Shown: positions 46,635-62,570 of the stretch, piece by piece | Layout of the letters: every line of letters begins with the position of its first letter | Numbering within the stretch: the stretch's first letter is position 1 | IMG/VR virus record: IMGVR_UViG_3300026097_000001 | Length of the DNA: 64,000 nucleotides | Direction: 5' to 3' (one strand) | DNA from: a virus | Taxonomy: Duplodnaviria > Heunggongvirae > Uroviricota > Caudoviricetes | Translations under genes and position numbers: made by a program | The notes under the pieces: generated by a model | Databases searched by the model: none | What the model saw: the letters and a program-made list of their open reading frames with translations, nothing else | What the model was told of the DNA's origin: nothing

Positions 46635-47018
46635 TTATTCTGGTGTAGACAAGGACTCTTCGTAATATGCGATGATGGCCTGTTGCTCTTTAATGTACCT
46701 ACGAAGATCACCAATACCTATGGCAAGGTTTTCATAACCCTTTGGAGTGATGGAAAAGAATACAACGTTTCCTGTGCTATCTTCTAGCTCAGCAAGTTTT
46801 TCTTCAAGGTTTTCTTCCGTTACAACAAACCAATCGACCGGAGGAAAGTTAACCTTCTCAGGACGTTCTTGAATTGGAATATTCTGTTCTAAATATTCTG
46901 TTTCAGTTACTACCGTCGGTTCCGGAGTTCTCCCCAGACACCCCGTCAGTAGCATCAGTGGTATCGCTAGGAGGAGTAGTTTCCCTAGCAATGTCATCGA
47001 TGAGTTTATTAACTGCAC
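46635..47018 (-). CDS. outer-membrane spanin (o-spanin lipoprotein)
   Basis: 127 aa; signal peptide with lipobox LLTGC; start embedded out of frame in the 3' end of the i-spanin gene. Confidence 0.5.
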   Translation of the reverse strand: MQLINSSMTLLGKLLLLAIPLMLLTGCLGRTPEPTVVTETEYLEQNIPIQERPEKVNFPPVDWFVVTEENLEEKLAELEDSTGNVVFFSITPKGYENLAIGIGDLRRYIKEQQAIIAYYEESLSTPE

Positions 47019-47346
47019 GGTCGACCCTTTCTTCTAAGTTTACAGGATCCTGTAAAGCTTCCATAGTTAAATCAATACGAGCAAACTTGCTACGTAATAC
47101 GTTTAGATCCTTACGTGATTCTGCAAGTTGCTTCGATAGGTTTTGATTAAGTTCTTCATTACGTTTTGCGTCTGCGGCCAGTTTATCTACTGTATTTTGT
47201 AATGTTTCAGCCGCAGACACAAGTTTTACGTTATTTTCTCGAAGAGTGGCAATGGTTTGTTCAGACCATTCGTAATAGCTCTTAGCAGCAAAGGCCACAC
47301 CGCCTACGATGCCTAAAACGATTATTAAGAGATATAGCCTGGCCAT
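46903..47346 (-). CDS. inner-membrane spanin (i-spanin)
   Basis: 147 aa; N-terminal TM LYLLIIVLGIVGGVAFAA, then coiled coil, then a Thr/Asp-rich tail. Confidence 0.5.
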   Translation of the reverse strand: MARLYLLIIVLGIVGGVAFAAKSYYEWSEQTIATLRENNVKLVSAAETLQNTVDKLAADAKRNEELNQNLSKQLAESRKDLNVLRSKFARIDLTMEALQDPVNLEERVDRAVNKLIDDIARETTPPSDTTDATDGVSGENSGTDGSN

Positions 47347-47367
47347 TAGTACTCCGAGAGTTTAGAA

Positions 47368-47751
47368 TTACTTGCTGCAGTATGAAGCGTATAGCTCGTT
47401 AAACTTTTCTTTTGTGCAGCCGTACTTTTCATTACATTTCTTGTACATTTCATTCTTCGGACATGCTGCAGCGTGAAGTTTTTTCATTTCACGAACGCAT
47501 GCCGCTTCATCCATGTCATCGTCGTCATCATCATCATCATCGTCTTCGTCGTCCATGTCGTCTTCATCAGACATTTCAGACAATGTGTCTTCGTCGTTCT
47601 CTTCATCAAGTTCTTCTTGGTCGAAAGAACCTTCTGTCATTTTTGCTTGGATAGCGAGAGCAATACGCTCACGCATTTCTTCTTCCAATGCCTCTTTCAT
47701 TCCAAGAGGGTTTTTGTTAACAGAATGTTCTATAATATCTCTAATAGACAT
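47368..47751 (-). CDS. highly acidic protein
   Basis: 127 aa with an uninterrupted Asp/Glu run (DDDDDDDDDMDE); sits in the lysis cassette. Confidence 0.4.
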   Translation of the reverse strand: MSIRDIIEHSVNKNPLGMKEALEEEMRERIALAIQAKMTEGSFDQEELDEENDEDTLSEMSDEDDMDDEDDDDDDDDDDMDEAACVREMKKLHAAACPKNEMYKKCNEKYGCTKEKFNELYASYCSK

Positions 47752-47791
47752 TTTTGTCTCCTATTTGTTTATAGTTTCAACTTATTATTTA

Positions 47792-48643
47792 TCATCTAAA
47801 CATTTTTGCTTGAGTCTTTGGCCCAATTATACCGTCTGGAGTTAGGCCATTCGCTCTCTGCCATTTTTTCACGGCTACTAACGTTCCTGGACCGAAGTCG
47901 CCATCCGCGGATACACCAATTGCCTTTTGCATTTTAGCAACGTCATCGCCCTTCATACCTTTACGTAGAGTACGGACCTTTGTTGATGTTTTACGTGGAG
48001 TCGGAATACTTTCTCCACCTAAGATTCTTTTTGCTCTTTCATATCTAGACTTACGGTCGTCAAGACCAATCGTTCCACCGTTGATACGTTTTGACATTCC
48101 TACGATATCATCTTTGTCCGCGTAACGATCGATATTATTCGTAGCCCAGAACCAGCAAGCAGACTCAAGAGCACCCTTCTTCGTCGCAACGTACTCAGCA
48201 GCTTCTTCTGCCGACATACCAACGGATTTACCAAAGGCAGTATAGTTATTACGACCGGTTAGCTGTTTGATGCCACGACCACGAAATCTCCATCCGTCTC
48301 CGTCTTCTGTGTTACCCATCTGACCGCGCTTCGAACGGAATTCATCCTGGTATACGTAGTTAGCGATCTTTTCTGGTTTACGAGCATACTCGGATGCGTC
48401 TCTCTTACCTTTTCCAAAGTATCTACCGAACACACTATTTAAAGCTTTTTCTGAGTAGTTTAAGTTTTCTTCAAGGCGAGTAAAGTCCGCAGACTCATGA
48501 CCGCACTGAGCCATAAAACCAGCGATACGTAATGGTGTTACTATATCATATTTTTTAAACATGTCAACAACATTTTCGTACCATTCTTCTGGTTCTTTGT
48601 TTCTTGGTATCATTGCTTTGAATTGTTCGAGAGTAATCATCAC
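47792..48643 (-). CDS. endolysin: GH19 chitinase-like muramidase plus C-terminal peptidoglycan-binding domain
   Basis: 283 aa; GFMAQCGHESADF, GRGIKQLTGRNNY and ACWFWATNNI (GH19 core); C-terminal TLRKGMKGDDVAKMQKAIG...DGIIGPKT (PG_binding_1). Confidence 0.75.
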   Translation of the reverse strand: MMITLEQFKAMIPRNKEPEEWYENVVDMFKKYDIVTPLRIAGFMAQCGHESADFTRLEENLNYSEKALNSVFGRYFGKGKRDASEYARKPEKIANYVYQDEFRSKRGQMGNTEDGDGWRFRGRGIKQLTGRNNYTAFGKSVGMSAEEAAEYVATKKGALESACWFWATNNIDRYADKDDIVGMSKRINGGTIGLDDRKSRYERAKRILGGESIPTPRKTSTKVRTLRKGMKGDDVAKMQKAIGVSADGDFGPGTLVAVKKWQRANGLTPDGIIGPKTQAKMFR

Positions 48644-49853: not shown

Positions 49854-50156
49854 TTAACTATCAGCAACAATAGTATCTTCAATAGCAGTATTACCAGTGA
49901 TACCCAAGTCACCTGCATCGCCAGCAGTTACTTTCATAGCAACTAGGCATTCAGTTCTATGACGGCTACCTGCATTGCTGTATAGGTTCCAACCTGGAGT
50001 CTTAAGACCTTTTGCGCGGTTGGCTGCGATACCAGCTTCTGTAGTATCAACGAATACGCAGTTATCGCGATCATTCGAAGTATTAGTGTTGTTTGCGTCA
50101 TCTTCCAACCATTTTGGAACATCAGCCAATGTATCTGTTTTTCCCCAAAGTGCCAT
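49854..50156 (-). CDS. hypothetical protein
   Basis: 100-aa ORF. Confidence 0.35.
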   Translation of the reverse strand: MALWGKTDTLADVPKWLEDDANNTNTSNDRDNCVFVDTTEAGIAANRAKGLKTPGWNLYSNAGSRHRTECLVAMKVTAGDAGDLGITGNTAIEDTIVADS

Positions 50157-50229: not shown

Positions 50230-51036
50230 TTATTTTGTAAGACGATCGACCGCTTTTCTAATACCTGCCGATCTTTTTAAGCCTTTGAAATTCATTTTAC
50301 CTGTCTTACCAACATTTAAAGCATTTTGAGCACGATCGTCAGAAGCCTTCTTCACATAAGATCCAAGTGTCTTTTTGCTGATTTCATCAAGCGCTTCAAA
50401 TGATTCTACAAGACCAACCTTTTTAAGTTCAATAAACATACGTTCACGTACATCTGTATCCATTCCATCAATTAAACGATTTAATCTAGTAAGAAGTTGT
50501 CCTGCCTGTAGAATATTAACACGACCAATTTGATCAAGAAGCTTAGAAACTTCCATAAATTCTTTCTTATCAACTCCACCATATTTTTGAGCATAAGCTT
50601 TCATTGCTTTAGCGCCGGCAGAAAACTTCTTCTGATCCATTGCTTCATCAAGTTTAGATTCTTCAAGAATTTTATCTTTATGTTTTGCCCTGTATGCAGC
50701 AACTGCACGATCAGCCGCGCGGTTGTTTGCTCTACCGGGACCACCAAAGTATGCATCATGATAAGCCTGCGCTTCACCTTTTGCATATTCAGGTTTCTTA
50801 TATCCTGCAGATCCCATATAAGAAGTTCTACCTTCAGGATTTTTTAGATGAGCTCTATAACCACCAAACTTTGATTTTTCAGATGAAGCTTTATAACCTT
50901 CGTCGATTGTGTGTTGTCCACCGCAATGAGGACAGTCTGGACCGCAGCCACACTTACCTTTTTCATCAATCATATTACCACAACAGGAACATTTAGATCC
51001 TGCCATTTGTTCTACAAAAGTTTTAAACCGTTTCAT
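50230..51036 (-). CDS. zinc-binding Ala/Lys-rich protein
   Basis: 268 aa; N-terminal CSCCGN...CGCGPDCPHCGG cluster. Confidence 0.35.
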   Translation of the reverse strand: MKRFKTFVEQMAGSKCSCCGNMIDEKGKCGCGPDCPHCGGQHTIDEGYKASSEKSKFGGYRAHLKNPEGRTSYMGSAGYKKPEYAKGEAQAYHDAYFGGPGRANNRAADRAVAAYRAKHKDKILEESKLDEAMDQKKFSAGAKAMKAYAQKYGGVDKKEFMEVSKLLDQIGRVNILQAGQLLTRLNRLIDGMDTDVRERMFIELKKVGLVESFEALDEISKKTLGSYVKKASDDRAQNALNVGKTGKMNFKGLKRSAGIRKAVDRLTK

Positions 51037-51076
51037 TGATATTTCCCTGTTTTTTTTGATTATCTTAAACTATTTA

Positions 51077-51427
51077 TCAATTATCTACATTAGCACCTGC
51101 ACGCCATTGGTGGCAACTCCAGTATCTTGCTTTCCATTTTGGGCCAGGATTATCACAGTTATGTCTTGCTCTAAAGTTCTTGCGTCTCTTAGGATCATCT
51201 CTTTTGATTTCCATCTTTGGATCACCGAAACGAACGACTACGACGTTACCCTTATCGTTCTTTACGTATACTTTAAACTTTTTGTTTGGGTTTTCAGAAG
51301 TACGAATAGGATCGTTGAGTTTAACCTTACGCCCTTCATACTCAGCCTCTTCAACAACTAGGTCTTCGTAAAGGTTGCATTCTTCGCAAGTTTCGTCGAT
51401 CTGATTATATCTGCTAAAGCTTTTCAT
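51077..51427 (-). CDS. hypothetical basic protein
   Basis: 116-aa ORF. Confidence 0.3.
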   Translation of the reverse strand: MKSFSRYNQIDETCEECNLYEDLVVEEAEYEGRKVKLNDPIRTSENPNKKFKVYVKNDKGNVVVVRFGDPKMEIKRDDPKRRKNFRARHNCDNPGPKWKARYWSCHQWRAGANVDN

Positions 51428-51735
51428 TTCATTAACTTCTTTATTGTTGATAACGCTTTTTTGCCATCGGGGTGGTTTGGATTAATACTTACAGTTTCAC
51501 CATTTACAAAGTCTGATATATTTGCCGCTTTACCAAGATCTTTGATTGCTTTGTGTAGCGGATCCTTTGGATCAAAAGTAGTCTCAAAGTTTGGCTTACC
51601 ACGTAACTCGACCCAACTCTTTTCTTTGGTATCCCACATCTTAAGTACACCCATATTCTTATCACGAATATACTTGAGCTTTACACCCTCTGAAATATAT
51701 TGTTTAAATCTAACCACCGAACTCGTGTCCTGCAA
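51424..51735 (-). CDS. hypothetical protein
   Basis: 103-aa ORF. Confidence 0.3.
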   Translation of the reverse strand: MQDTSSVVRFKQYISEGVKLKYIRDKNMGVLKMWDTKEKSWVELRGKPNFETTFDPKDPLHKAIKDLGKAANISDFVNGETVSINPNHPDGKKALSTIKKLMK

Positions 51736-52036
51736 CGCGTTTCATCTGTTTGGTAAACTCTTTAAAGGAAGGCTTTTTCTTATATAGTTTAATAGTAAGG
51801 TGTGCTTTATCTTTACCCTTAATGCGCCAGTTCATACCTTTTTCTTTATGTTCAGGTTTTGTGGTTTTAACGACTCTACGTTTGTAACCATCTTCCCATG
51901 TTTCCGAACCTTCGGCCAGCGCAATCGCAGTTTTACATTTTCCGCAACATTGCGAAGTTCCGCAGTTTGGGTGCCCTTCTTCTAATCTTGGTATTTTTGA
52001 CATACTTTGTAAATGTTCTTTAAATGATTTCATCAT
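51710..52036 (-). CDS. hypothetical Cys-cluster basic protein
   Basis: 108 aa; CGTSQCCGKCK. Confidence 0.3.
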   Translation of the reverse strand: MMKSFKEHLQSMSKIPRLEEGHPNCGTSQCCGKCKTAIALAEGSETWEDGYKRRVVKTTKPEHKEKGMNWRIKGKDKAHLTIKLYKKKPSFKEFTKQMKRVAGHEFGG

Positions 52037-54290
52037 GCTTTACGATATACAATTTACCGTCCTCTGTTCTTATTCTTGCTCTCCCAGTTTCATCATCAGT
52101 ACCAACAAAGGTACCTTCTAATGTTTCGGAATTTCCAGTCACATAGTTATGAATAAATTTTACTTTATCGCCACGATGTATATTTGCATCTAATGCAGCT
52201 TCTTCAAGGTCTTGCCCGGGTGTATCTTTTTTATACTTTTTAGTTAAACTATCAGTTCCCCATTCTCTTTCTGATGGAGAGTCCTCTTTTTGTTCAGCTT
52301 TGTAACCGTACTTCTTTAAAAGCTGTTTTCGCTGTAAAGGATTACGTGTCATAGTTGCAGGTTCACCGTACTTTTTCTTGTATTCGGTCTCAAGTTTGCG
52401 AGCCGGTATACCAATGTTCGAAAGAGTAACGATTTGATTTATTATATCCCCAAGGCTTTCACCTTTTGAAACATGATTGTGTATTTTTTCAAGAACTTTA
52501 TTTAACATAGTTTGTTCATCTAAGCTTGAGAATTCTTCCTTCTCTTTATCTGTCAAACTAAATTGTTCCTTTCTAACTTTTGCTGCAAGGTCTTTATCTG
52601 CTTTACCCCAGGTTCCTTTTCCTTTGGTAGCAAATGAATTGACTCTTGCTAATCCCCATTGTGTTGGGGTTGTTCCTGGCCTGTGGCCAGTTCTCCAAGC
52701 AGCGACTCCACGATCAAAGACCTTCTTTAGAATACCATACGATATTCCAGTCTTTTCCGCCTTTTTCTTTAGAGCTTTTTTCGATTCTGTTAGATCGTCA
52801 AAATCTTCTGACATTAAGAAGTCTTCAAAATCTTTTGAGAAATTTAAGATATCATTTATATCATTGTTTAAATCTTCGCCCACCTGTTCTTTAGATTTAA
52901 ATATCTTAAATCGTTTATCAAACTTAACAGCGCCGGTTTTTTCTAAAGCCATGTGAGGTCTTTTTCGAACCGTCATATCTGCCTTTGCGGCTTCGCCAAA
53001 CATATCTTTAAACTTTTTCGTATGAACAGAAGGTTTTGTCTTTGCATCTTTATCGCCAGGGGCTGGTTTATATGCAGCAGGATTATCATCGTCCATCTTA
53101 CCATACTTTTTAAAGTGGCGAGCGCGATCGTCTTTCTTATCCTTATCTACACCTTTATAGTATCCCTTTGGCTGAGATCCTGGCATATCCTTTACATCAG
53201 GATCCTGAGGCTTTTTGGATCTTGATTCCATAAATACTTCAAACATTGCATCTGTACTATATTTTTCTTCATTCTTTTTTGGATTTAAAACACCAGCAAG
53301 ACGTTCTTTTTCTGCTTTTCTAACCTTTGGAAGAAGGCGAGTTGCAATTCTGTCTATTACTCTGCCAGGAATCTTTTGTAATCTTTTGTCTAGCGTAATC
53401 TTTTCGGCTGTAGACATTTCGGAATATTTTTTATTCTTTGATAGTCTATTTCTCATAAAGTTTAATGCTTGTTTACGCGATCTCTTTAACAACTTATCCT
53501 TAGGAGCCATCTTTCTCTTTGATCTCTCACGTGACATCTTAATCTTGGTCTTATACTTACGCATAGTCAAGGCTCTTTTTCTTCTCTGCTGAATTGAGAG
53601 AGGAGCTCTTTCCTCAAGATCTTCTTCTTGTAAATCAAGTTCTTCAGTTATGTTCATTCCTTTACGGACCATATTCATAACCGCTGTTGCAGTACCTTTT
53701 AGTTTTTTAGGCAGGCCTTGCTTAAATAGTCCGATGTCGCCAGCTTTTGCCGCTGCTCTCATTTTTGATGCAGACATGCCGGTTACGCCTTCAGAGTCAG
53801 GATCTCTTTCTCCAGCTGAAACTATTTCAATGTTTTCGAACGTATAGTCGAGTTCGTTATACTTTTTCAATAGAGTTTCAAACTCTTTGACTCTATCGGA
53901 TCCTACGACCAATACAAACTTGTCATATCTCTTTGACAGTTCTTTAGCAACTTCAATGATCGTTCGAGCCGAAGATCTCTTTACAATTTTGCCGAATGCC
54001 TTTTGGCCGAGTTTAACCTTTTGTTCGTATGATAGTGGATTCTTCTTTGCATCCTGAGAATGAGACATATATACCGCGGCATCAGCCTTGCGCTTTACAG
54101 CTTCCGTGATAACTCTGTTCACTAACTTTTCATGACCAACCGTGATTGGATTGAAACGACCAAAACTTATAACGACGGTCTTATTCGTAGCCTCATTCAT
54201 GACTGGTTCTACTTCTATATACTGAGAAGGATCGTGTTCCTTGACCTTCTTGGAATTCTTTTTCTTTTTATCATTTTCTTTTTCGACCAT
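52020..54290 (-). CDS. chimeric protein: N-terminal HxGH nucleotidyltransferase domain (PPAT/TagD-like) fused to a ~580-aa Lys/Arg-rich region
   Basis: 756 aa; residues ~40-200 have FGRFNPITVGHEKL (HxGH) and GVTGMSASKMR (ISxTxIR); the rest is highly basic low-complexity; a TATAAATA box sits 33 nt upstream. Confidence 0.55.
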   Translation of the reverse strand: MVEKENDKKKKNSKKVKEHDPSQYIEVEPVMNEATNKTVVISFGRFNPITVGHEKLVNRVITEAVKRKADAAVYMSHSQDAKKNPLSYEQKVKLGQKAFGKIVKRSSARTIIEVAKELSKRYDKFVLVVGSDRVKEFETLLKKYNELDYTFENIEIVSAGERDPDSEGVTGMSASKMRAAAKAGDIGLFKQGLPKKLKGTATAVMNMVRKGMNITEELDLQEEDLEERAPLSIQQRRKRALTMRKYKTKIKMSRERSKRKMAPKDKLLKRSRKQALNFMRNRLSKNKKYSEMSTAEKITLDKRLQKIPGRVIDRIATRLLPKVRKAEKERLAGVLNPKKNEEKYSTDAMFEVFMESRSKKPQDPDVKDMPGSQPKGYYKGVDKDKKDDRARHFKKYGKMDDDNPAAYKPAPGDKDAKTKPSVHTKKFKDMFGEAAKADMTVRKRPHMALEKTGAVKFDKRFKIFKSKEQVGEDLNNDINDILNFSKDFEDFLMSEDFDDLTESKKALKKKAEKTGISYGILKKVFDRGVAAWRTGHRPGTTPTQWGLARVNSFATKGKGTWGKADKDLAAKVRKEQFSLTDKEKEEFSSLDEQTMLNKVLEKIHNHVSKGESLGDIINQIVTLSNIGIPARKLETEYKKKYGEPATMTRNPLQRKQLLKKYGYKAEQKEDSPSEREWGTDSLTKKYKKDTPGQDLEEAALDANIHRGDKVKFIHNYVTGNSETLEGTFVGTDDETGRARIRTEDGKLYIVKHDEII

Positions 54291-54322
54291 GAAGTGTCTC
54301 CGGATTTCATGTTATTTTATTG

Positions 54323-54330
54323 TATTTATA
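54323..54330 (-). promoter_or_regulatory. T4-late-type promoter box TATAAATA
   Basis: Exact TATAAATA on the minus strand 33 nt upstream of the 756-aa gene start. Confidence 0.4.
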
Positions 54331-54333
54331 ATA

Positions 54334-54894
54334 TTAGCTTCTTAGTTCAAAATTATCCTTTGAGAAAAAGTTATCCATACAATACTGCTTTTCAACTGGA
54401 TAATCATGAGGGCAGGCCCTTTCTCTTTTACCCTGTGGATCTGTAAATGTCGCAGATTCTTTCCAATCGAAACCATATACCGTAACCATCTTTGGATCGC
54501 ACGTAGAGATGTAATCTAAAGTAATCAAACCCGTTGTAGGATTGGCATGTTTTCCTGCTTTTAACTTTAGTGGTTTGTATAGAGAATCTGGGTACACAAA
54601 ATCTACTTTACTTAGATTATTATGAGATCTACCCTGATGGCCAGCGTGAACCTTTTTTATGTTATTTGCAATCTTTGGGAACTGCATTTTGTATTCTGAA
54701 GTATTCCAAAAGAACCATACGTCTGTTCTTTTTCCATGGCTCTTTATTGCGTCCTTACGTGTGTATAACACGGCGGCTTTATTTAACCGCACTACAATAT
54801 CATGAGAGTCTATCTCTTCACCATATTCTCTATCAAATAATGATATTGCATTGCCAATCACAGCAACCGTTTTATTTTCAAACCATTCTTTCAT
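54334..54894 (-). CDS. GT29-like (sialyltransferase-motif) glycosyltransferase, paralogue 1
   Basis: 186 aa; L-motif KTVAVIGNAISL...GEEIDSHDIVVRLNKA and S-motif PTTGLITLDYISTCDPKMVTVYGFDW. Confidence 0.55.
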   Translation of the reverse strand: MKEWFENKTVAVIGNAISLFDREYGEEIDSHDIVVRLNKAAVLYTRKDAIKSHGKRTDVWFFWNTSEYKMQFPKIANNIKKVHAGHQGRSHNNLSKVDFVYPDSLYKPLKLKAGKHANPTTGLITLDYISTCDPKMVTVYGFDWKESATFTDPQGKRERACPHDYPVEKQYCMDNFFSKDNFELRS

Positions 54895-55400
54895 TTTCTT
54901 AGTTCAAATACCTTATCTTTATTTTGAAAGAATCTTTCTCTGCAATAGTTTCTTTCGAGAGGAAAATTGTGGCGATCCTCCTTTAATTGTTTATTATGAA
55001 ACGATGGAGTTTGTTTCCAATCATAACCATATACATAAACCTTCTTAGGATCGTATAATGATATAAGATGTAATATTCTTAAACCAGTCGAAGGACGATG
55101 ATGGCCGAGATCTTCTTTTAACCATTCTATGTCAATCTCTTTGTGATGAAGTATTTCTACGATATGATCGCACGATTTATTAGTAACTCTACTCGGCTTC
55201 ATAGTTTTAAACCAGTTTAAAAACCACACATCAGTCCTTTCGCCGTGAGACTTTACATCCTTAGGCTGCAACATAAAGAACCCACGTTTTATTCTACATA
55301 CCACATCAGCAGAATCTATTTCACTCCCATAATCTTTTTCAAAAAGACTCTTTGCATTACCTACTACCGCAACGGTCTTACCTTCAAAAACTTCCTTCAT
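54891..55400 (-). CDS. GT29-like (sialyltransferase-motif) glycosyltransferase, paralogue 2
   Basis: 169 aa; KTVAVVGNAKSL...GSEIDSADVVCRIKRG and PSTGLRILHLISLYDPKKVYVYGYDW. Confidence 0.55.
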   Translation of the reverse strand: MKEVFEGKTVAVVGNAKSLFEKDYGSEIDSADVVCRIKRGFFMLQPKDVKSHGERTDVWFLNWFKTMKPSRVTNKSCDHIVEILHHKEIDIEWLKEDLGHHRPSTGLRILHLISLYDPKKVYVYGYDWKQTPSFHNKQLKEDRHNFPLERNYCRERFFQNKDKVFELRK

Positions 55401-55406
55401 ATTATC

Positions 55407-56084
55407 CTAGAGACCGTGTTGTTGACTATAATCCATATAGATGCGTTCTCTATGCCATTCGTCTGCCATAGGAGTCGTTGCGAAATCGTGGAAACATGGA
55501 GTACCTAGAGTATAGTGTAGCAACTTTGCATCCGGGTTTGCACCAAACTCGTCAGGCAACCAGTTCCATTCAATCGGAAGTTCACCGATCTCATTATCAG
55601 GCAACCAACTAAATCTATGTACCTTTGCGCCGGTTGCGTTCTGAACAAAATCTGGAGTAACAACGCTATTTCCAGGATGTGCACAGTTCCAGAGTATTAC
55701 GCTCGACCAGTTTTTACGAGGATAGTCTTCGTTCTTTGCACCAAGGTACTTCTCCTTCATGCGAGTCTTATAATCGTGCTTTACTACCATCACGGCCTTC
55801 GAGTCATCACGCATTTCCCAAAGTTTTGCGATATCGTCTCGAAATATCATATCACCATCTACGAACAGTGCCCAGCCCTTGTATCCCATTAGATGAGGAA
55901 TAAGAAACCTACTGTATATGAAATGGTTGCTTCCATCCGTATGCTTCTCTTCATAACCCTTTAAAAGGTTGAGTGATAGCGGATTGATGCTTACCGGTTC
56001 AGATGAATTTCTTATGATAGAATTGGAACATACGTGATATGCTGTTGCCTCTCTCACATCGTATCCCATAAACACTGGTATCAT
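55407..56084 (-). CDS. glycosyltransferase family 8 (LPS alpha-1,2/1,3 hexosyltransferase-like)
   Basis: 225 aa; FIYSRFLIPHLMGYKGWALFVDGDMIFRDDIAKLWEM (GT8 DxD region). Confidence 0.6.
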   Translation of the reverse strand: MIPVFMGYDVREATAYHVCSNSIIRNSSEPVSINPLSLNLLKGYEEKHTDGSNHFIYSRFLIPHLMGYKGWALFVDGDMIFRDDIAKLWEMRDDSKAVMVVKHDYKTRMKEKYLGAKNEDYPRKNWSSVILWNCAHPGNSVVTPDFVQNATGAKVHRFSWLPDNEIGELPIEWNWLPDEFGANPDAKLLHYTLGTPCFHDFATTPMADEWHRERIYMDYSQQHGL

Positions 56085-56623
56085 TGTTTCTTTTTCCTTC
56101 TGCTATTCATTATATCTATCGTTAAGTTTTTTATTAGTATATCTTTAGGTTGATCCATTAACCACTTGATTGTGTTTGCGATATAATCAGTTTCTATTCG
56201 AGGGTATTCTCTTCTATGATCCGTCATTGGAGTATTCATTCTTCCGAGTTTTAAATGAATGATCTTGCAACTCGTATCAATAAGTTGCAGCTGCAGGCAG
56301 GTTTTTTCTAACGCAGCCTTATGAATAGCATATTCATTAACCGCATCCCTGTTGCCATCAGCGCTCACGCTCCCAACATTAATTACCGTGCAATCTCTAT
56401 ATTTATTTTTTTCAAACAACTTATATAAAAGAGTAGTCTGCGAATAATCATGGTATGCATTGTTTATGTATACGTCAAAATCATCAACTAAGAATGTATC
56501 TAGGTCTTTGCTTAAATCATATCCGTTTTGTCTACTTAAACCGACTACTTCATGATCTTTTGATAAAATATTATATAAAGTTTTACCAAGACCGCTTGTA
56601 TGTCCTGTAATCACTATCTTCAT
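56081..56623 (-). CDS. short-chain dehydrogenase/reductase-like Rossmann protein
   Basis: 180 aa; N-terminal MKIVITGHTSGLGKTL glycine-rich NAD(P) motif. Confidence 0.5.
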   Translation of the reverse strand: MKIVITGHTSGLGKTLYNILSKDHEVVGLSRQNGYDLSKDLDTFLVDDFDVYINNAYHDYSQTTLLYKLFEKNKYRDCTVINVGSVSADGNRDAVNEYAIHKAALEKTCLQLQLIDTSCKIIHLKLGRMNTPMTDHRREYPRIETDYIANTIKWLMDQPKDILIKNLTIDIMNSRRKKKQ

Positions 56624-56624
56624 T

Positions 56625-57599
56625 TTATTTTTTATACCTATTCATATCTGCTTCGACCATTTCAGTAATCATACGTTCAAAAGTATATTCCGGCGTCCAA
56701 TCTAGAGTCTTCTTTGCTTTATCAGAGTCGGCATGGAGACTGTGTAGCTCGTTAGGTCTTTCAAACTCCTCGTCACTTACAACATAACTTTCCCAATCGT
56801 TTATACCGACAGTATTAAATGCTACACTACATAGATCACGTACGCTGTGTTTAATTCCCGTCGCAATAATAAAGTCTTCTGGCTTTTCTTGTTGCATCAT
56901 TAACCACTGTGCACGAACGTAGTCTTCAGCGTGACCCCAATCGCGTTCGGCATCAAGGTTTCCAAGAACCACCTTATCCTGTAAACCGTTCTTAATTCTT
57001 GCTACTCCATCCGTTATCTTTCTTGAAACAAATTCAATTCCGCGTATCGGCGACTCGTGATTAAATAGCAATCCAGTACAGGCATACGCATCGTAACTCT
57101 CACGATAGTTTTTAGTAATATGATATCCGTATAGTTTAGCGATACCGTATGGACTTACCGGCTCAAAGGGAGTCTTTTCATTCTGTCTTCCATCTATATT
57201 ACTGTTTCCAAACATTTCGCTGGTGCCCGCTTGGTAAAACTTTGTATCCGGTTTAATACGACGAATTGCTTCTAGACAGTTTAACGGGCCGAGCGCATCA
57301 ACGTGAGTGGTTACATACGCAAGTCTCCAAGAACCTCCAACAAAGCTCTGGGCTGCTAGGTTATAGAGTTCGTCTGGTTGCACTATCTCCATTACATCCA
57401 TCATACTGCAAGGATCCGTAACATCCCCAACGATTGTTTTTAAACCTTTATTGAAAAGATCTAGGTACTCGATGTTATTCCAGTTTGGACTACTATATCT
57501 TTTAACGAGACCATAAACATCATACCCTTTTTCTAATAATAGTTTACCAAGATAGCAGGCATCTTGTCCAGGAAATCCTGTAATTAAAGCGGTCTTCAT
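56625..57599 (-). CDS. gmd: GDP-mannose 4,6-dehydratase
   Basis: 324 aa; ALITGFPGQDACYLGKLLLEKGYDVYG, YNLAAQSFV, TSEMFG and the YGIAKL active-site region match Gmd along the full length. Confidence 0.85.
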   Translation of the reverse strand: MKTALITGFPGQDACYLGKLLLEKGYDVYGLVKRYSSPNWNNIEYLDLFNKGLKTIVGDVTDPCSMMDVMEIVQPDELYNLAAQSFVGGSWRLAYVTTHVDALGPLNCLEAIRRIKPDTKFYQAGTSEMFGNSNIDGRQNEKTPFEPVSPYGIAKLYGYHITKNYRESYDAYACTGLLFNHESPIRGIEFVSRKITDGVARIKNGLQDKVVLGNLDAERDWGHAEDYVRAQWLMMQQEKPEDFIIATGIKHSVRDLCSVAFNTVGINDWESYVVSDEEFERPNELHSLHADSDKAKKTLDWTPEYTFERMITEMVEADMNRYKK

Positions 57600-58774
57600 T
57601 TTATATTCCTTATTACATCTGCTACCATATCGATCTTTTCAGAGAGATCGACACAATCGTTTCCTATAAAGAAACCGTCGTAATGAAGCTTATCGGTTCC
57701 TTCAAAGGTTCCACTACTGTCCCAGTTTAATCTATCTATCACTGGGTTCTTCATAAAGTTACCTGCAACGATTGGTCGTGTTTCTACACCATTCGCCGTG
57801 AGTTCCTCGATTACTTTCTTTCTTTTGCCGGCAAGATCGTCCTCGAGGATCAATCCAAAACCAAACCAGCTACTCTTTTCGTGCTCTACTTGAAGTCTTA
57901 TGTTAGGAACATCAGCAAAGACCTTCTTGGCGACCTCGGCGTTCTTTCTTCGATCTATCATCATCTGAGGCCACTTTTTGAGCTGTTCTTGGCCGATCGC
58001 ACCACTCATCTCAAGAGGGCGTACGCAATAGCCTGGAAGTATAAACTTAAAGCTGTCTTCAAACGGATCACCGGACTTTTTAAACAATGGATCGTCAGAT
58101 GTACTATCCCTTAACCAACCGTGAGCTCTTAGGCTCTTTAGGTACTCGTAGGTCGTATCATCGTTCGTAAGAACCATGCCACCTTCCATAGTCTGCATGT
58201 GGTGGCTAAAGAAGAAACTAAACGTTCCCATCTCGCCGATAGATCCACAGTGCCTGTCGTATTCAAGCGCACCTAGACTCTCACAGTTATCTTCAAGCAA
58301 TGTGATATCCTTTGCATCACATATCTGTTTTAATCTCTTGAGCTCGGCGGGGTTACCTAGAAGGTTAACAACAAAGACGGCCGCGGTATCTTCATCGATC
58401 GCTTCTTCTACAGCTTTAGGATCTATGTTAAATGTATATGGATCCACGTCAACGAACCGCAGAGTATATCCCCACTGATGAACAGGGAAGTATGTTGTAC
58501 TCCAACTCACGGCAGGTACGATTATGTTTCCCTTATTCTTATACTTTGGATTCAATGCAAGCGCCGCTATTGTAATCAGATTGGCGCTGCTACCGCTATT
58601 CGTCATAACGGCATACTTACTTCCAAAGAACTCAGCAAACTGTTCTTCGTATCTTTTTACTTCTTCACCCATCGTATACTTACCACTTGCGATTACACGA
58701 TGAATAGCACTAACTTCTTCATCACCCCAAGTATCACTTGCTAATCTATATTTCACGGGAACTTTCCTTTCCAT
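57596..58774 (-). CDS. DegT/DnrJ/EryC1-family sugar aminotransferase (perosamine-synthase-like)
   Basis: DegT-family conservation (DTWGDEEVSAIHRVIASGKYTMGEEV..., TNSGSSANLI); start trimmed to the internal Met MERKVPV because the 52-aa extension in the track ORF looks spurious. Confidence 0.7.
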   Translation of the reverse strand: MERKVPVKYRLASDTWGDEEVSAIHRVIASGKYTMGEEVKRYEEQFAEFFGSKYAVMTNSGSSANLITIAALALNPKYKNKGNIIVPAVSWSTTYFPVHQWGYTLRFVDVDPYTFNIDPKAVEEAIDEDTAAVFVVNLLGNPAELKRLKQICDAKDITLLEDNCESLGALEYDRHCGSIGEMGTFSFFFSHHMQTMEGGMVLTNDDTTYEYLKSLRAHGWLRDSTSDDPLFKKSGDPFEDSFKFILPGYCVRPLEMSGAIGQEQLKKWPQMMIDRRKNAEVAKKVFADVPNIRLQVEHEKSSWFGFGLILEDDLAGKRKKVIEELTANGVETRPIVAGNFMKNPVIDRLNWDSSGTFEGTDKLHYDGFFIGNDCVDLSEKIDMVADVIRNIK

Positions 58775-59640
58775 TGTATAACACTGTTTAAATATTCGAA
58801 TGTTTTTAAATCCTGTGCCTCGCCGATTGTATATTGGCCGTGCGCAAGACTTTGAAAGAGTGGCATTCTTTCTTTCTCTGTAAGATTTTCTATTTGGCTT
58901 ATCGAATGTGAAAGTGGAAACGCTGGGCAAAACTTGTCACATATAACCGGTACTCCCATTCTTAAGGCGTCTAACGCAGCAGAACTGTTATATGCGACAA
59001 CACAGTATGCGTCTTCAAAAGCTTCTTCGAGGCTCTCTTCGTATTTTGGTTTACCTTTTACTTTTTTTGGATTAATTAACAGATTGTCAATAGTATCACC
59101 GGGTTTTCTTCTTACGATAATAGGTCTATTCGTATACTTTCTTATTTCGTTAATTATATTTTGTTCCCAAGCTAGCTTATCAAAAACTTTGGCAACTACA
59201 TTGCTTGGAGGGAGAATAACGATATTTTGCTTATCCTTAAAATTATAATCTCTAAACTCTAGATCAAAGTTGGTTTCAAATCTCTCTTTACTTACATTCG
59301 GGATAATTGCATTTTGAGCAAACCCGTTCTTTGTAATTCTCATCCAGCACGGGCCGTTATAACCTTTACTAAAGTATGCGTGATCTATGTAATAAAAATC
59401 TACATGGCGCTTCCTTGCCATCTCAAAAAGATGGGCATTTCCACGAAGAATACCCGAAAAAATAATCGCCTTAGCCCGAGGAGGAATGCCCTTCTTTATA
59501 ACTTTTTCTGGCAATGTTCCGTTTGGTTTCTGCACTGATATGAGATGCCGCGTATGTACTATCTTTGCTCCACACGCAGACCCAAACGCTTTTACATAGC
59601 GATCCTGCTCTCTTTTACCTGATAAAAAAGCATATATCAT
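58753..59640 (-). CDS. TagF/KpsS-like GT-B transferase (CDP-alcohol or CMP-sugar dependent)
   Basis: 295 aa; C-terminal YCVVAYNSSAALDALRMGVPVICD resembles the TagF-family motif; paralogous to 60997..62016. Confidence 0.4.
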   Translation of the reverse strand: MIYAFLSGKREQDRYVKAFGSACGAKIVHTRHLISVQKPNGTLPEKVIKKGIPPRAKAIIFSGILRGNAHLFEMARKRHVDFYYIDHAYFSKGYNGPCWMRITKNGFAQNAIIPNVSKERFETNFDLEFRDYNFKDKQNIVILPPSNVVAKVFDKLAWEQNIINEIRKYTNRPIIVRRKPGDTIDNLLINPKKVKGKPKYEESLEEAFEDAYCVVAYNSSAALDALRMGVPVICDKFCPAFPLSHSISQIENLTEKERMPLFQSLAHGQYTIGEAQDLKTFEYLNSVIQWKGKFP

Positions 59641-59644
59641 TATA

Positions 59645-60433
59645 TTACCTTACATTATTCCAATATTGATTTTTTCTTTTTACAATCAGGTCGCCTTTAT
59701 GGCTGGTACCCTTCTTTTTTCGAGGGCCTTTCATATGATCCATAAATTCTCCAAGAGGTCCATTGATAAAGGGGTGGTTATTTTTAATAGAAGGACTCAG
59801 GTTGTGCCAGTGTTTTGGATCAAACCTTTTCATGGCATCGTCATACGTATGACAGTCGGTCCAATTTTCTAGACCAAAGATACTATCGTCTAGGTAGTAT
59901 TTCTTCCATGCATTTAAAAAGTCCTTGGCAATCTCGTGGTTCATATTAAAGATATGAAAGCCGGTTTCGGTATACATCCATGGGCGCGCAAGGTATCCTG
60001 CAAACTTTTCATTTGGGCACCAGTTGCCAATGTCACTTCTCTGAACCGGAGAGTGCGTTCTACTATCGCCATCTAACCACACGAGGATGTCGGTTTCATT
60101 TTCTTCTAGGAATTGAAATAAGGCGAAAACTTTATGACTAAACCTTACAGCATCGAAGCGATAATTTTTTTTACCATTTGTTGCGTGTCTACCTAACCCG
60201 TTTGCCTCAGGATTGTTTTTATGTCTCTCTTTAAATGATAAAAGATCCTTATGATCTAGGATTTTATATTGTACTCTCGGATCTCTTATCAGATCCTTCT
60301 TTGGTATCGGGTCATCAACATAGACGGTTAAATAAGTATCCTTTGGCCAGTTTTCTATGAACCCTCTTACTAATAAGCCACCGGTCTCTTTCCATCCTTG
60401 GAGGCTATAACACGTTACTGCATTTATCCGCAT
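59645..60433 (-). CDS. hypothetical glycan-island protein
   Basis: 262 aa, Trp/His-rich; operon context only. Confidence 0.3.
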   Translation of the reverse strand: MRINAVTCYSLQGWKETGGLLVRGFIENWPKDTYLTVYVDDPIPKKDLIRDPRVQYKILDHKDLLSFKERHKNNPEANGLGRHATNGKKNYRFDAVRFSHKVFALFQFLEENETDILVWLDGDSRTHSPVQRSDIGNWCPNEKFAGYLARPWMYTETGFHIFNMNHEIAKDFLNAWKKYYLDDSIFGLENWTDCHTYDDAMKRFDPKHWHNLSPSIKNNHPFINGPLGEFMDHMKGPRKKKGTSHKGDLIVKRKNQYWNNVR

Positions 60434-60996
60434 GGCAAATCCTTTCTATCAAACACCAGGCCGCGTATTTTTACAAATTGTTGTCTGTCTTTTCTTATTT
60501 CGTTGTTCATTAAAGTAACCGACGCACCTCTCACAGCCATAGTTTCTTTTAGATTAATATCAAACCCATACTCTTTAAATACCTTTACCCAATAGATCTC
60601 AGTCTGCTCGTTGACGTGATTCTTTCCACCCCAAAATGGAGGTGCGGCCGTAAGAATTACTCTCTTACACTTTTGAAAATCTTTCATAAAGATTGGAATA
60701 CACTTTTCTTCAACGTGTTCAACGAACTCTACGCTCCAACCGAGATCAAAATCAATATCAAAGTCTGATGAACCTATTCTATAATCAACCTGCTGAAAGT
60801 TATTTGATTTTGGTGTTTCGTTTGTACCGTCTACGCCATACGCATTGATACCAAGCTTTAACGCTTCCAATACTTGACCGCCTGTACCGCATCCAATATC
60901 AATCATAGTCTTTACGTTCCATTTTTCTTTCGCATATCTCAGCGCTTCAATGTCAACGTTTGTACCACCGCCGTGTTGTTTTTCTTTAAAATCCAC
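60424..60996 (-). CDS. class I SAM-dependent methyltransferase
   Basis: 190 aa; motif I MIDIGCGTGGQVLEAL. Confidence 0.6.
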   Translation of the reverse strand: MDFKEKQHGGGTNVDIEALRYAKEKWNVKTMIDIGCGTGGQVLEALKLGINAYGVDGTNETPKSNNFQQVDYRIGSSDFDIDFDLGWSVEFVEHVEEKCIPIFMKDFQKCKRVILTAAPPFWGGKNHVNEQTEIYWVKVFKEYGFDINLKETMAVRGASVTLMNNEIRKDRQQFVKIRGLVFDRKDLPCG

Positions 60997-62016
60997 TTAT
61001 GAATACTTTCTTATTAATTTTTCCACGTAATAGGATGCTTGCCCAGTTTCAAAATAGGTCGTTGGGATCTCGGTGCAAGACATATTTTTTACCCACCTAA
61101 GGACTTCTTTTTTTGATGCAAGATATGGATTATTTATAGTATTTAAATTTGTATTATTTAAGTCTCTTCCAAAGTTTTCATCTGCACAGTACGTTGGTAT
61201 GCCTGCGTCTATTAACTCAAATATACTAGTTGAATTGTTAATTACTGCACAGTACATATCTTCATACATTTCTCTAATATTTTGCTTTGAACTTAAAAAC
61301 TTTATATTCTTATACTTTTTTGTTAAGTATTGATATTCTTTTTGCATTTTACTTGCAGGATGAATTTTAATTTTTATTCTTCTTTCGGTATGCTTTCTTA
61401 TAGTTTTTATGGAGCTTTCTAAAAATTCGTTTATTGGCATAGTACTCGTTGGATCTATCTCAAGACCGGTGAATATGTATATAGAACCACATTTATTTAC
61501 ATTCCAAGAATGATCATACAAACGTTCAGCATTTATTGTTCTAAGTATATTAAAATCTTCTGGAGTTAACCACTTTCCATGTTCATATACCCAACTGTCT
61601 AAAGAAATTCTTATGTTTGCTTTGTGGTCTGTTTTACGGTAATTATCTTCGGCTCTTGATATCGTTCTACTCTCAAAGACGACGATCTTTTTGTCATGTT
61701 TTCTTGCCAGATCTACCCAGTGCGAATTTAAAACGTCCAAGACAGCGCTTCTTAACTTATATTTCTGTTGTAATTCGCCGCTTGATACTCTATCGTATGA
61801 AAAATCTGGAGGGATATGAAGTTGCTTTCTTAAATCACTGCCCCACGTACCATTTAACACAATTGCATCAGCATCGTAAAAATAGTTCATATACTCCTGT
61901 GGAATAAAATCTTTATCTTTAATCTTAAATTCGTTAAAGTAACTTATGGATGGGCTGTCTGTCATCCTTGCGAATTTTTCGGTAGATCTAGATGTCACTG
62001 AAACGAAATATTTCAA
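60997..62016 (-). CDS. TagF/KpsS-like GT-B transferase, second paralogue
   Basis: 339 aa; C-terminal YCAVINNSTSIFELIDAGIPTYCAD homologous to the same region of 58753..59640. Confidence 0.4.
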   Translation of the reverse strand: MKYFVSVTSRSTEKFARMTDSPSISYFNEFKIKDKDFIPQEYMNYFYDADAIVLNGTWGSDLRKQLHIPPDFSYDRVSSGELQQKYKLRSAVLDVLNSHWVDLARKHDKKIVVFESRTISRAEDNYRKTDHKANIRISLDSWVYEHGKWLTPEDFNILRTINAERLYDHSWNVNKCGSIYIFTGLEIDPTSTMPINEFLESSIKTIRKHTERRIKIKIHPASKMQKEYQYLTKKYKNIKFLSSKQNIREMYEDMYCAVINNSTSIFELIDAGIPTYCADENFGRDLNNTNLNTINNPYLASKKEVLRWVKNMSCTEIPTTYFETGQASYYVEKLIRKYS

Positions 62017-62570
62017 AGTTTATTCTCCTTAGATCCACGAAGGATAAAATTATCTCTATTGAAAAAGTTCTGATAACAATATTCTTTTTCTTCGCTAAAA
62101 ACGTGGGCAACGCACTTTCTTTTTTCGTGCCAAGAATATGTTTCTTTCCAGTCAAAACCGTAGACGTGTACGCTCTTTGGATCCTGCTTAGAAATGTAAT
62201 AGAGGACTCTGAGCCCGGTCGAAGATTTCTTTGTTAGGTTGCTGTCAAGATCTATTCTATCCTCTTCAGAAAAGACTGTATCAGCCATTTCTATAAACTC
62301 AGGAGATACGCTTGTGGTATCCATCTGCATCTTAAGAACACCTTTGTTGTGAGCGGTATTAAAATGCGCTTTGTTCTGTCGAATGTTTTGCATACACCAT
62401 ACGTCGATACGCGATCCCATCTGCTTCCTATATTGAGGAAACCGATACCCACCGCGATTGATCCTTACGACTACGTCCGCAGTGTCTATCTCATTGCCAT
62501 ATCTCTGTTGTATGAGAGACGCCGCGTTGCCAACTACCGCAACCGTCTTTCCTTCAAACCATTCTTTCAT
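62013..62570 (-). CDS. GT29-like (sialyltransferase-motif) glycosyltransferase, paralogue 3
   Basis: 185 aa; KTVAVVGNAASL...GNEIDTADVVVRINRG and SSTGLRVLYYISKQDPKSVHVYGFDW. Confidence 0.55.
   Translation of the reverse strand: MKEWFEGKTVAVVGNAASLIQQRYGNEIDTADVVVRINRGGYRFPQYRKQMGSRIDVWCMQNIRQNKAHFNTAHNKGVLKMQMDTTSVSPEFIEMADTVFSEEDRIDLDSNLTKKSSTGLRVLYYISKQDPKSVHVYGFDWKETYSWHEKRKCVAHVFSEEKEYCYQNFFNRDNFILRGSKENKL

Follow-up and report, generated by a model that had tools for sequence, protein, structure and literature searches.

A nucleotidyltransferase with a multi-module tail as a candidate head-packaged protein of marine T4-like phages

Introduction

What role could be played by a phage protein in which a nucleotidyltransferase (NTase) domain is followed by a long basic tail? 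Such a protein, of 756 aa, is encoded on the minus strand (52020..54290, –) of the 64,000-nt stretch analyzed here, IMG/VR virus record IMGVR_UViG_3300026097_000001 (hereafter, the window). The original prediction offered two readings, each considered unusual: a packaged virion protein delivering the enzyme together with a DNA/RNA-binding tail, or a TagD-like CDP-glycerol synthase supplying two TagF-like transferases encoded nearby. The former is the better supported of the two, given the capsid-targeting sequence of orthologs, the presence of the ortholog S-SZBM1_140 in virions, the late-type promoter box, and the adjacent cluster of signal-bearing genes. On balance, we lean towards a late-expressed, head-packaged, injected multi-module protein, similar in its logic, not in its sequence, to the internal proteins and Alt of phage T4; for this particular protein, we infer the packaging, the cleavage, and the substrate. 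The most useful result is the link between the cyanophage “cytidylyltransferase,” its repeated detection in virions, and a T4-type targeting sequence, together with the signal-bearing cluster downstream.

The Gene and Its Family

The open reading frame (ORF) starts with ATG, with a GGAG ribosome-binding site (54298..54301, –) read from the sequence 7 nt upstream, and its N-terminal domain matches PF01467, hence both the gene and the domain are real, as predicted. The window also contains genes for a gp63-like RNA ligase, a Dda-like helicase, NrdA, NrdB, and the gp61 primase, as well as collagen-like tail fibres, a GH19 endolysin with spanins, and a sugar-modification island. The closest isolated phages are Pelagibacter phage HTVC008M, Methylophilales phage Melnitz, and phage C48C1, with HTVC008M and C48C1 filed as Kyanoviridae in their records. 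Megablast of the 45–64 kb region of the window against the phage collection yields no match; the phage is not a sequenced isolate. An identical protein (P0001) is encoded on a 201-kb metagenomic contig.

The protein belongs to PHROG 3041 “cytidyltransferase” (E = 3e-98) and has more than 7,700 database homologs, the most common architecture being PF01467 plus DUF5824; HTVC008M gp130 (596 aa, PHROG 3041 / 395) is an annotated member. In T4-like cyanophages the enzyme domain alone constitutes cluster T4-GC190, with the long-standing label “cytitidyltransferase,” and several jumbo phages have a bare enzyme of 185–190 aa. The length of family members ranges from 360 to more than 1200 aa, and their module content is likewise varied. 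The fusion architecture noticed originally is confirmed, but not its rarity, as the protein is a member of an already annotated, very common family of marine T4-like phages and not a unique chimera.

The gene order DNA polymerase – uvsX – gp41 – … – NTase – … – DUF7207 – … – gp61 – nrdAB is common to cyanophages, HTVC008M, and Sinorhizobium phage phiM12, and hence the NTase genes are positional orthologs. The NTase domains of Syn9 gp184, S-PM2p139, S-SZBM1_140, and HTVC008M gp130, located at the same genome position, are orthologous to that of the target (42–53% identity). The cyanophage forms and gp130 share with it a Tudor-like barrel and a GTDxLxxxYxxxTPG motif, and gp130, in addition, a conserved motif block and DUF5824. 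The cyanophage forms (360–410 aa) start with a canonical targeting sequence and contain neither the basic module nor DUF5824, and HTVC008M encodes the basic module separately (gp142), whereas in the target all these parts are fused, with an extra helical module added.

Targeting Sequences, Virion Proteomes, and Late Transcription

In phage T4, a 10-residue capsid-targeting sequence (CTS) is sufficient for head targeting, residues 4 and 7 being the most important, and the prohead protease cleaves after its Glu (PMC9026906). The N-termini of the T4 ipII and ipIII products read MKTYQEFIAE|A, and the orthologs of the target start in the same manner: MKKFSAFLSE|A in Syn9 gp184, MKKFSAFLTE|A in P-SSM7_191, MKSFFQFLSE|A in S-SM2_161, and MRFRQFIIE|A in S-SZBM1_140. 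A regular expression for the targeting pattern was applied to approximately 240 kb (the window and the related loci), covering every ORF from 40 aa upwards that starts with ATG or GTG in any of the six frames. It matched 21 ORFs, all on the coding strand and nearly all in gene clusters around NTase orthologs; the pattern is highly specific. The matches and near-matches include the cyanophage enzymes themselves. In our literature search, “capsid targeting sequence” and “cyanophage” occurred together only in one T4 review, the latter in the reference list alone.

One of these orthologs, S-SZBM1_140 (41.8% identity to aa 29–192 of the target, E = 7e-32), was identified by liquid chromatography–mass spectrometry in CsCl-purified virions, with an exponentially modified protein abundance index (emPAI) of 0.26, close to the values for prohead core and baseplate proteins, and its neighbours S-SZBM1_139 and S-SZBM1_136 were also found in virions by mass spectrometry (PMC9146016). 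A homolog of the cyanophage virion structural protein S-SZBM1_136 / Syn9 gp188 is encoded in the window at 49854..50156 (–), as found by tblastn. Proteins labelled as nicotinamide mononucleotide adenylyltransferase (NMNAT)-like or as cytidylyltransferases have been reported in virion proteomes of S-SCSM1, S-CBWM1, S-CREM2, and one more estuarine phage; S-SZBM1_140 is the only proteome-detected protein compared with the target, the other four being taken by their published label. In the published mass spectrometry of virions, only orthologs are represented (PMC9146016, PMC9602691, PMC10665884).

The late-type box upstream of the gene, noted in the original prediction, is real: the T4-type late-promoter-like sequence TATAAATA occupies 54323..54330 (–), with 32 nt between the box and the target ATG. 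The window contains ten copies of TATAAATA against 4.6 expected, nine of the ten on the coding strand, and in its 46–64 kb part late-type boxes precede just five genes, including the target and 50230–51036. A NATAAATA box is found at –32 to –47 upstream of the orthologs in loci L004, L005, and L006 and in S-SM2 (–39 in L004, –47 in L006, –32 in S-SM2). Hence the late transcription characteristic of T4-type internal proteins is seen here at the sequence level, as a box at –40 that is kept in orthologous loci. No further box lies between the target and the next three genes (51710..52033, 51424..51717, and 51077..51427), which suggests that all four may form a single late transcription unit.

The genes following the target tend to carry the targeting pattern themselves. 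The first of them (51710..52033, –), Cys-rich and matched by the regular expression, has a CTS-like start MKSFKEHLQS, and its orthologs in L004 and L006 start with MKSFKKFLEE and MKSFKQHLEA. The second (51424..51717, –), with a probable GTG start, has a CTS-like MVRFKQYISE|G, recognized by eye; the ortholog at L006:546–839 starts with MIKFRKYISE. In the third (51077..51427, –; weak DUF5754 match, below the cutoff) the N-terminus MKSFSRYNQIDE is a degenerate CTS-like sequence, beginning with MKSFSRY and then diverging, while the ortholog C48C1 CDS0096 has a clean MKKFKQYIDE. One more match to the expression (50230..51036, –) starts with a CTS-like MKRFKTFVEQ and has its own GATAAATA box at –42. 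In L004, a close relative, a row of five genes downstream of the ortholog all match the pattern; in HTVC008M, gp131 adjoins gp130.

Runs of small genes with MK(S/R)F..(F/Y/H)(L/I/V).(E/Q/S) starts are observed at 50230–52036 (–) of the window, L004:10296–13459, and L006:10041–11574, two genes in such runs being Cys-rich (CxxC clusters). By analogy, they look like the hypervariable internal-protein cluster of T-even phages.

DUF6267 (T4-GC71), with a ligase-like KxDG motif (VKWDGAPA), adjoins the NTase gene in cyanophages and pelagiphages (L006:836–2065; C48C1, L002, 5712–6935; Syn9 gp183, L009, 2800–3762; HTVC008M gp127, L001, 6547–7779), and has targeting-like N-termini in C48C1 (MLDFKNFITE) and L006 (MKRFKQYIAE). 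It may be a packaged ligase-like enzyme. No DUF6267 homolog is present in the window.

The Nucleotidyltransferase Domain

The domain (aa 36–215; 53646..54185, –) is of the (T/H)xGH nucleotidyltransferase type and belongs to the Rossmann-like HIGH superfamily. PF01467 (CTP_transf_like) matches aa 43–178 with 30.6 bits at the Pfam cutoff of 21, and the model of the domain has a predicted local distance difference test score (pLDDT) of 83–91. The N-terminal motif after strand 1 reads F-G-R-F-N-P-I-T50-V-G52-H53, that is, (T/H)xGH as in phosphopantetheine adenylyltransferase (PPAT), and the C-terminal ISxTxxR-type motif is present as G-M-S173-A-S-K-M-R178. None of the 50 homologs compared, with identities as low as 47%, departs from G52, H53, S173, or R178; at position 50, T occurs in at least 90% of them, and some orthologs have H instead (e.g., PPHAGH in S-SZBM1). 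The domain was originally described as an HxGH nucleotidyltransferase; it does contain the strings quoted in support, but the motif itself is T-V-G-H.

Foldseek search with the AlphaFold2 model retrieves NadD, PPAT, and FAD synthetase with E = 1e-4 to 1e-2, the top structure being the nicotinic acid mononucleotide (NaMN) adenylyltransferase 8aih (E = 1e-4), followed by PPATs, FAD synthetases, and glycerol-3-phosphate cytidylyltransferase (GCT; 1coz, E = 0.03); the template modelling (TM) scores on the target are 0.56–0.68 for NadD, PPAT, FAD synthetase, and GCT. Among NCBIfam profiles the closest is NadD (TIGR00482), to which the target aligns at full length, and yet its score, 29 bits, is below the cutoff of 112.45; PPAT (TIGR01510, 16.4 bits at the cutoff 103.3) and archaeal NMNAT (TIGR01527, 13.4 bits at the cutoff 181.2) also fall below. 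Sequence search in PDB yields marginal PPAT matches only (E ~0.06), the Pin1 matches being spurious.

The fold, (T/H)xGH, and the C-terminal SxxxxR are common to the target and to NadD / archaeal NMNAT, PPAT (CoaD), FAD synthetase, and TagD, and the PITxGH string of the target is as in PPAT. However, the loops SHSQDxKKNPL, VVGSDRVxEF, and SAGERDPD are invariant and family-specific, and set the target apart from NadD, PPAT, FAD synthetase, and TagD. The domain clearly belongs to the PF01467 superfamily, but to none of its characterised subfamilies. As for the activity, the data point weakly to an adenylyltransferase of the NMN/NaMN type, with a presumed substrate, and our confidence here is well under that for packaging.

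The Adjacent Sugar-Modification Island and the TagD Reading

Directly beside the gene lies a sugar-modification island (54334–62570, –). It encodes three GT29-like (sialyltransferase-like) paralogs, GT8, a short-chain dehydrogenase, GDP-mannose 4,6-dehydratase, a DegT aminotransferase, and a methyltransferase, as well as two unassigned, probably glycosyltransferase-like (GT-B-like) proteins. This adjacency underlies the reading of the enzyme as a TagD-like CDP-glycerol synthase, or another CDP/ADP-alcohol or sugar synthase, feeding the island, and the match to GCT structure 1coz could be counted for it, as could the fact that the PF01467 superfamily includes GCT and heptose-1-phosphate adenylyltransferase. 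Still, we consider it very improbable. No TagD model is found among the NCBIfam matches at E ≤ 1. The hallmarks of GCT are both histidines of HxGH and an RTxGISTT motif, whereas in the target the first His is replaced by Thr and RTxGISTT is not present, the second motif being GVTGMSASKMR. The donors of GT29-type enzymes are CMP-sugars, the products of enzymes with a different fold.

The supposed recipients do not hold either. The two ORFs taken for TagF-like transferases (58753–59640 and 60997–62016) have no match to Glyphos_transf (PF04464) even at E ≤ 10, and only weak ones to the glycosyltransferase-related models DUF6716 and PseG; TagF-like neighbours are thus rejected, with no Pfam or NCBIfam support at E ≤ 10 and no TagF/Glyphos_transf protein nearby. 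Moreover, in relatives the NTase gene retains its place next to islands that differ in content (that of L006 has GT25, a sulfotransferase, and a 2-oxoglutarate oxygenase), and the cyanophage and HTVC008M orthologs have no sugar-island neighbours at all. Hence the most plausible explanation of the adjacency is that a hypervariable island is flanked here by a conserved gene.

In the island itself, GDP-mannose 4,6-dehydratase and the DegT aminotransferase resemble a GDP-perosamine-like route. The DegT ORF (57596–58930, –; 444 aa) has a TTG start and a 178-nt overlap with the upstream gene, and the L004 ortholog is 392 aa long; as the DegT match begins at aa 69, the true start is probably further downstream.

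Modules of the Tail

The tail, originally described as basic and low-complexity, is indeed basic (K+R 23%, net charge +34), but not low-complexity. The local entropy of its 30-residue windows is ordinary (3.1–3.9 bits), dozens of its positions are invariant in the 50 homologs, it includes DUF5824, and AlphaFold with the family alignment folds it into helical modules (pLDDT ~70–94) with low-confidence linkers between them and a C-terminal beta-barrel, in agreement with the small beta-rich C-terminal domain of the original prediction. The notion of a DNA/RNA-binding tail also turns out to be too simple, as the tail consists of conserved modules that form separate genes in other phages, and the binding is predicted for two of its parts.

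The chain opens with a Lys-rich leader ending in M-N-E|A (aa 1–33; 54192..54290, –; pLDDT <50), a candidate propeptide with a prohead-protease site. The NTase domain is followed by the basic helical module M2 (aa 229–345; 53256..53606, –; pLDDT 84–94), around which, over aa 216–345, K+R amounts to 32%, and then by a conserved motif block (aa 360–465; 52896..53213, –) with approximately 25 invariant positions, PGSQPKGYYKG...DDRARHF...YKPAPGD..KTKPSxHTKKF...RKRPHMALEKxG.VKFDKRFK, common to HTVC008M, C48C1, and Melnitz and covered by no Pfam family. Next comes the helical domain DUF5824 (aa 495–576; 52563..52808, –; PF19141 at aa 506–567, E = 4e-16) with a near-invariant W-x-x-G-H-R-P-G-T loop; it is found in 2024 cluster representatives at E ≤ 1e-3, in proteins from 92 to 1392 aa, sometimes in two copies. 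The second helical module (aa 581–661; 52308..52550, –; pLDDT ~55–84) is present only in part of the family, including P0034 and P0089, and has no match in the phage collection.

The short motif EWGTDSLTKKYKKDTPGQ (aa 676–693; 52212..52265, –), with D689, T690, and P691 kept in at least 90% of homologs, recurs in the orthologs of Syn9, P-SSM7, S-SM2, and S-SZBM1, in HTVC008M gp128, and in unrelated DUF5824 proteins, and may be a docking or recognition peptide. As E(W/V)GTDxLxxxYKKDTPG(Q/E), it is observed at varied positions: at the C-termini of Syn9 gp184 and P0180, at the N-terminus of P0246, and in HTVC008M gp128. The chain ends with a Tudor/SH3-like beta-barrel modelled by AlphaFold (aa 705–756; 52023..52178, –); for the C-terminal 180 aa, tblastn yields no match among isolated phages.

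Many of these modules also exist on their own. M2 is free-standing in HTVC008M (gp142), C48C1 (CDS0088), and Ochrobactrum phage OC (p410), and DUF5824, in C48C1 (CDS0090) and podovirus HTVC202P (gp56); CDS0088 and CDS0090 start with MLSFKQFVSE and MITFKKYLEE, respectively. Among 22 short metagenomic DUF5824 proteins, about nine or ten contain a targeting-like sequence, either N-terminal or immediately ahead of the domain; two or three of these (P0228, P0254, possibly P0192) have it internally, preceded by other sequence. By homology, then, the tail of the target is a fusion of modules that in related phages are separate, individually targeted internal-protein genes. Tails of some homologs contain additional enzymes. 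P0034 has an HD domain, P0089 and P0111 have a Zeta_toxin/AAA_33 P-loop kinase, which HTVC008M encodes as a separate protein (gp129), and the homolog from Stenotrophomonas phage DLP_6 has a ParB-like DGHHR domain. Such variable enzyme inserts are typical of injected effectors.

In C48C1 (L002, 6968–9014), the family is split over three adjacent ORFs, and the order differs from that in the target: the basic module comes first, followed by the enzyme with the motif block and then by DUF5824. The start annotated for the enzyme ORF falls within the conserved FGRMNP strand, which probably reflects a wrongly assigned start or a disrupted gene. The “rIII lysis inhibition accessory protein” of Ochrobactrum phage vB_OspM_OC (L007, 2998–3579) is a homolog of the basic helical module of the target and a mis-annotation: BLASTP against T4 RIII gives E = 0.95, and the M2 homolog has no rIII PHROG match.

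In phiM12 gp159, the catalytic motifs are degenerate (TVEH, no SHSQD), while the remainder of the protein is kept. As the enzyme motifs decayed and the rest persists, the tail has a role of its own. This raises the possibility that the protein is mainly a structural or assembly one (prohead core, scaffold, or DNA-condensing), with the enzyme fold vestigial or secondary; the very basic, helical tail and the abundance of S-SZBM1_140, resembling that of prohead core proteins, would fit. We regard this as improbable, since the catalytic residues are invariant in 50 marine sequences down to 47% identity, which argues for a selected enzymatic activity, and since the length (360 to more than 1200 aa) and the module content vary widely, unlike in a measuring or scaffolding protein. 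The 602-aa gp159 (L019, 2317–4125) retains the leader and the basic module, along with a region resembling DUF5824; its C-terminal module, FTKHFxERMSDxRN, is free-standing in L004 (10296–10709), with a targeting-like start.

Leader and Candidate Cleavage Sites

The leader consensus of the family is a Lys-rich stretch followed by (K)SFKEFDPxKYIxxEPT(L/I/M)xE|(A/S), ending just before strand 1 of the enzyme. Its KSFKEF core resembles a targeting signal, and the target has a degenerate version of it, KKVKEH (KKVKEHDP). The first 10 residues of the target contain no (L/I)xE site, while the [LIM]xE at aa 31–33 is present in 41 of 50 homologs, and the one ending at aa 216, in 44 of 50. Conserved [LIM]xE positions outside the enzyme fold are, further, 216, 227, 472, 495, 502, 592, and 697. 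Positions 33, 216/227, 472, and 697 lie in or beside linkers with pLDDT <50, which constitute 16% of the chain. These sites would be consistent with a T4-type prohead protease that trims the protein and perhaps also cuts it internally, but this evidence is only modest, because the motif is short, the linkers are acidic, and strict internal motifs are not enriched.

An extension of this reasoning is that the protein could be a polyprotein of head-internal proteins, in which adjacent targeted genes have been fused and the prohead protease cuts at the (L/I/M)xE sites of the linkers, after approximately aa 33, 216/227, 472/502, 592, and 697. The head would then contain, and inject, the NMNAT-like enzyme in free form, along with a DUF5824 protein, a Tudor-like module, and a basic module that binds DNA in the manner of histones. 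We consider this speculative and rather unlikely. If true, it would make the T4 system of capsid targeting and processing a general, evolvable cargo-loading platform in the most abundant myoviruses of the ocean, with cargo including NAD-related, kinase, HD, and ParB-like enzymes.

We also looked for “fossil” targeting sequences in the linkers, and rejected them: the strict pattern was found twice in the 50 homologs against 1.1 expected from shuffles. The target has one good internal targeting-like example, KDFEDFLMS (aa 486–494).

Packaged or Cytoplasmic?

Head packaging is well described for the T4 proteins IPI, IPII, IPIII, and Alt, which are packaged in the head, injected, carry the 10-residue targeting sequence, and are trimmed by the gp21 prohead protease. 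The orthologs of the target share with the T4 internal proteins the N-terminus M-K-x-(F/Y)-x-x-(F/Y)-(I/L/V)-x-E|A, and the target cluster, like theirs, consists of late, clustered genes of basic proteins, with content variable between related phages. T4 ipII and ipIII adjoin the endolysin gene, and the target cluster is approximately 3.4 kb from the endolysin. Alt is a large enzyme delivered at injection, as the target would be. The differences are also clear: the target has no sequence homology to any T4 internal protein or Alt; its enzyme is a HIGH-type nucleotidyltransferase, whereas Alt is an ADP-ribosyltransferase; it has a Lys-rich leader before a degenerate motif, unlike the terminal targeting sequence of the internal proteins; and it is a chain of at least six modules, whereas they are single small proteins.

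Polyvalent proteins (Iyer et al., 2017; PMC5512222) are another group of large multi-domain proteins predicted to be virion-borne and injected. The target family, like them, shuffles enzymatic modules (HD, Zeta/AAA_33 kinase, ParB-like), but the target has no MuF or other known anchor domain and only one recognisable enzyme domain. Cytidylyltransferase, cyanophage, Pelagibacter, NMNAT, and Zeta toxin are not mentioned in that paper.

Several observations weigh against packaging and delivery of the enzyme. The target does not start with a canonical targeting sequence; its leader is rich in Lys, contains a degenerate motif internally, and has MNE|A at aa 31–33. All virion detections come from cyanophage orthologs, none from this phage or from a long-form protein, and the authors of the cyanophage proteomes, who noted the recurrence, could not exclude co-purification of abundant soluble proteins. 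The bare 185–190-aa enzyme of jumbo phages GAP32 and PA5oct has no signal, and hence the enzyme can work unpackaged; the PA5oct copy is not flagged as detected by mass spectrometry, though its neighbours are. A prohead protease gene is not in the window. To these should be added the modest weight of LxE sites conserved within acidic linkers, the “fossil” sequences found at near the shuffled frequency, and, for the activity, the scores of all equivalog models, far below the cutoffs, with NadD, PPAT, FAD synthetase, and GCT approximately equally distant structurally.

The rival reading is that of a cytoplasmic auxiliary NMNAT-like enzyme, unpackaged, that sustains NAD+ in infection or counters an NAD+-depleting defence, with the tail serving for regulation, oligomerisation, or nucleic-acid localisation and the virion detections of orthologs explained by carry-over. 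The stand-alone jumbo-phage enzymes, the co-purification raised by the proteome authors themselves, the absence of a canonical targeting sequence in the target, and NadD as the closest profile all speak for it. It is nevertheless unlikely in our view, though to be taken seriously, since orthologs have a T4-type targeting sequence of a highly specific pattern, such a protein has been reported in five independent virion proteomes, the target has a late promoter and heads a cluster of signal-bearing genes, and no NadV/Nampt partner is seen in the window.

The sequence of events that we propose for the packaged protein is as follows. A sigma-55-type late promoter (TATAAATA) would drive the target, probably with the next three genes, 50230–51036 having its own box. 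Targeting to the prohead core would be provided by the Lys-rich leader, in which the FKEF-type motif is degenerate, by other modules, or by both, and a T4-type prohead protease would remove the leader at M-N-E|A (aa 33). After injection, the (T/H)xGH nucleotidyltransferase would act on a host small-molecule phosphate and an NTP; the likeliest activity, that of an NMN/NaMN-type adenylyltransferase, might raise or restore NAD+ at the onset of infection, this step being the least certain. The basic helical module and the Tudor-like barrel are predicted to bind nucleic acid.

T4-like myoviruses that infect SAR11, methylotrophs, and cyanobacteria rank with the most abundant marine viruses, and the gene family is near universal in them. 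If the protein is injected with DNA, infection begins with a ready-made nucleotide-activating enzyme, possibly an NAD+-making one, which bears on the takeover of slow-growing, nutrient-limited hosts and on possible blunting of NAD+-depleting defences. The MK(S/T)F..F(L/I/V).E N-terminus is a simple rule that could predict head cargo among the small genes of marine T4-like phages, and also suggests a tag for loading foreign proteins into them.

Other Genes of the Window

The lysis cassette (46635–48643, –) comprises a GH19 endolysin with a C-terminal PG_binding_1 domain (47792–48643), a probable i-spanin (46903–47346), and an overlapping o-spanin lipoprotein with an LLTGC lipobox (46635–47018, –). 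Within the same region, a 127-aa protein (47368–47751, –), with a GATAAATA box at –42, contains an extreme acidic run (DDMDDEDDDDDDDDDDMDE), and only its first 38 residues are conserved in relatives. Finally, a collagen-repeat tail-fibre protein of 1738 aa is encoded at 9531–14747 (–), where the GC content is 0.45–0.50 compared to ~0.40 elsewhere.

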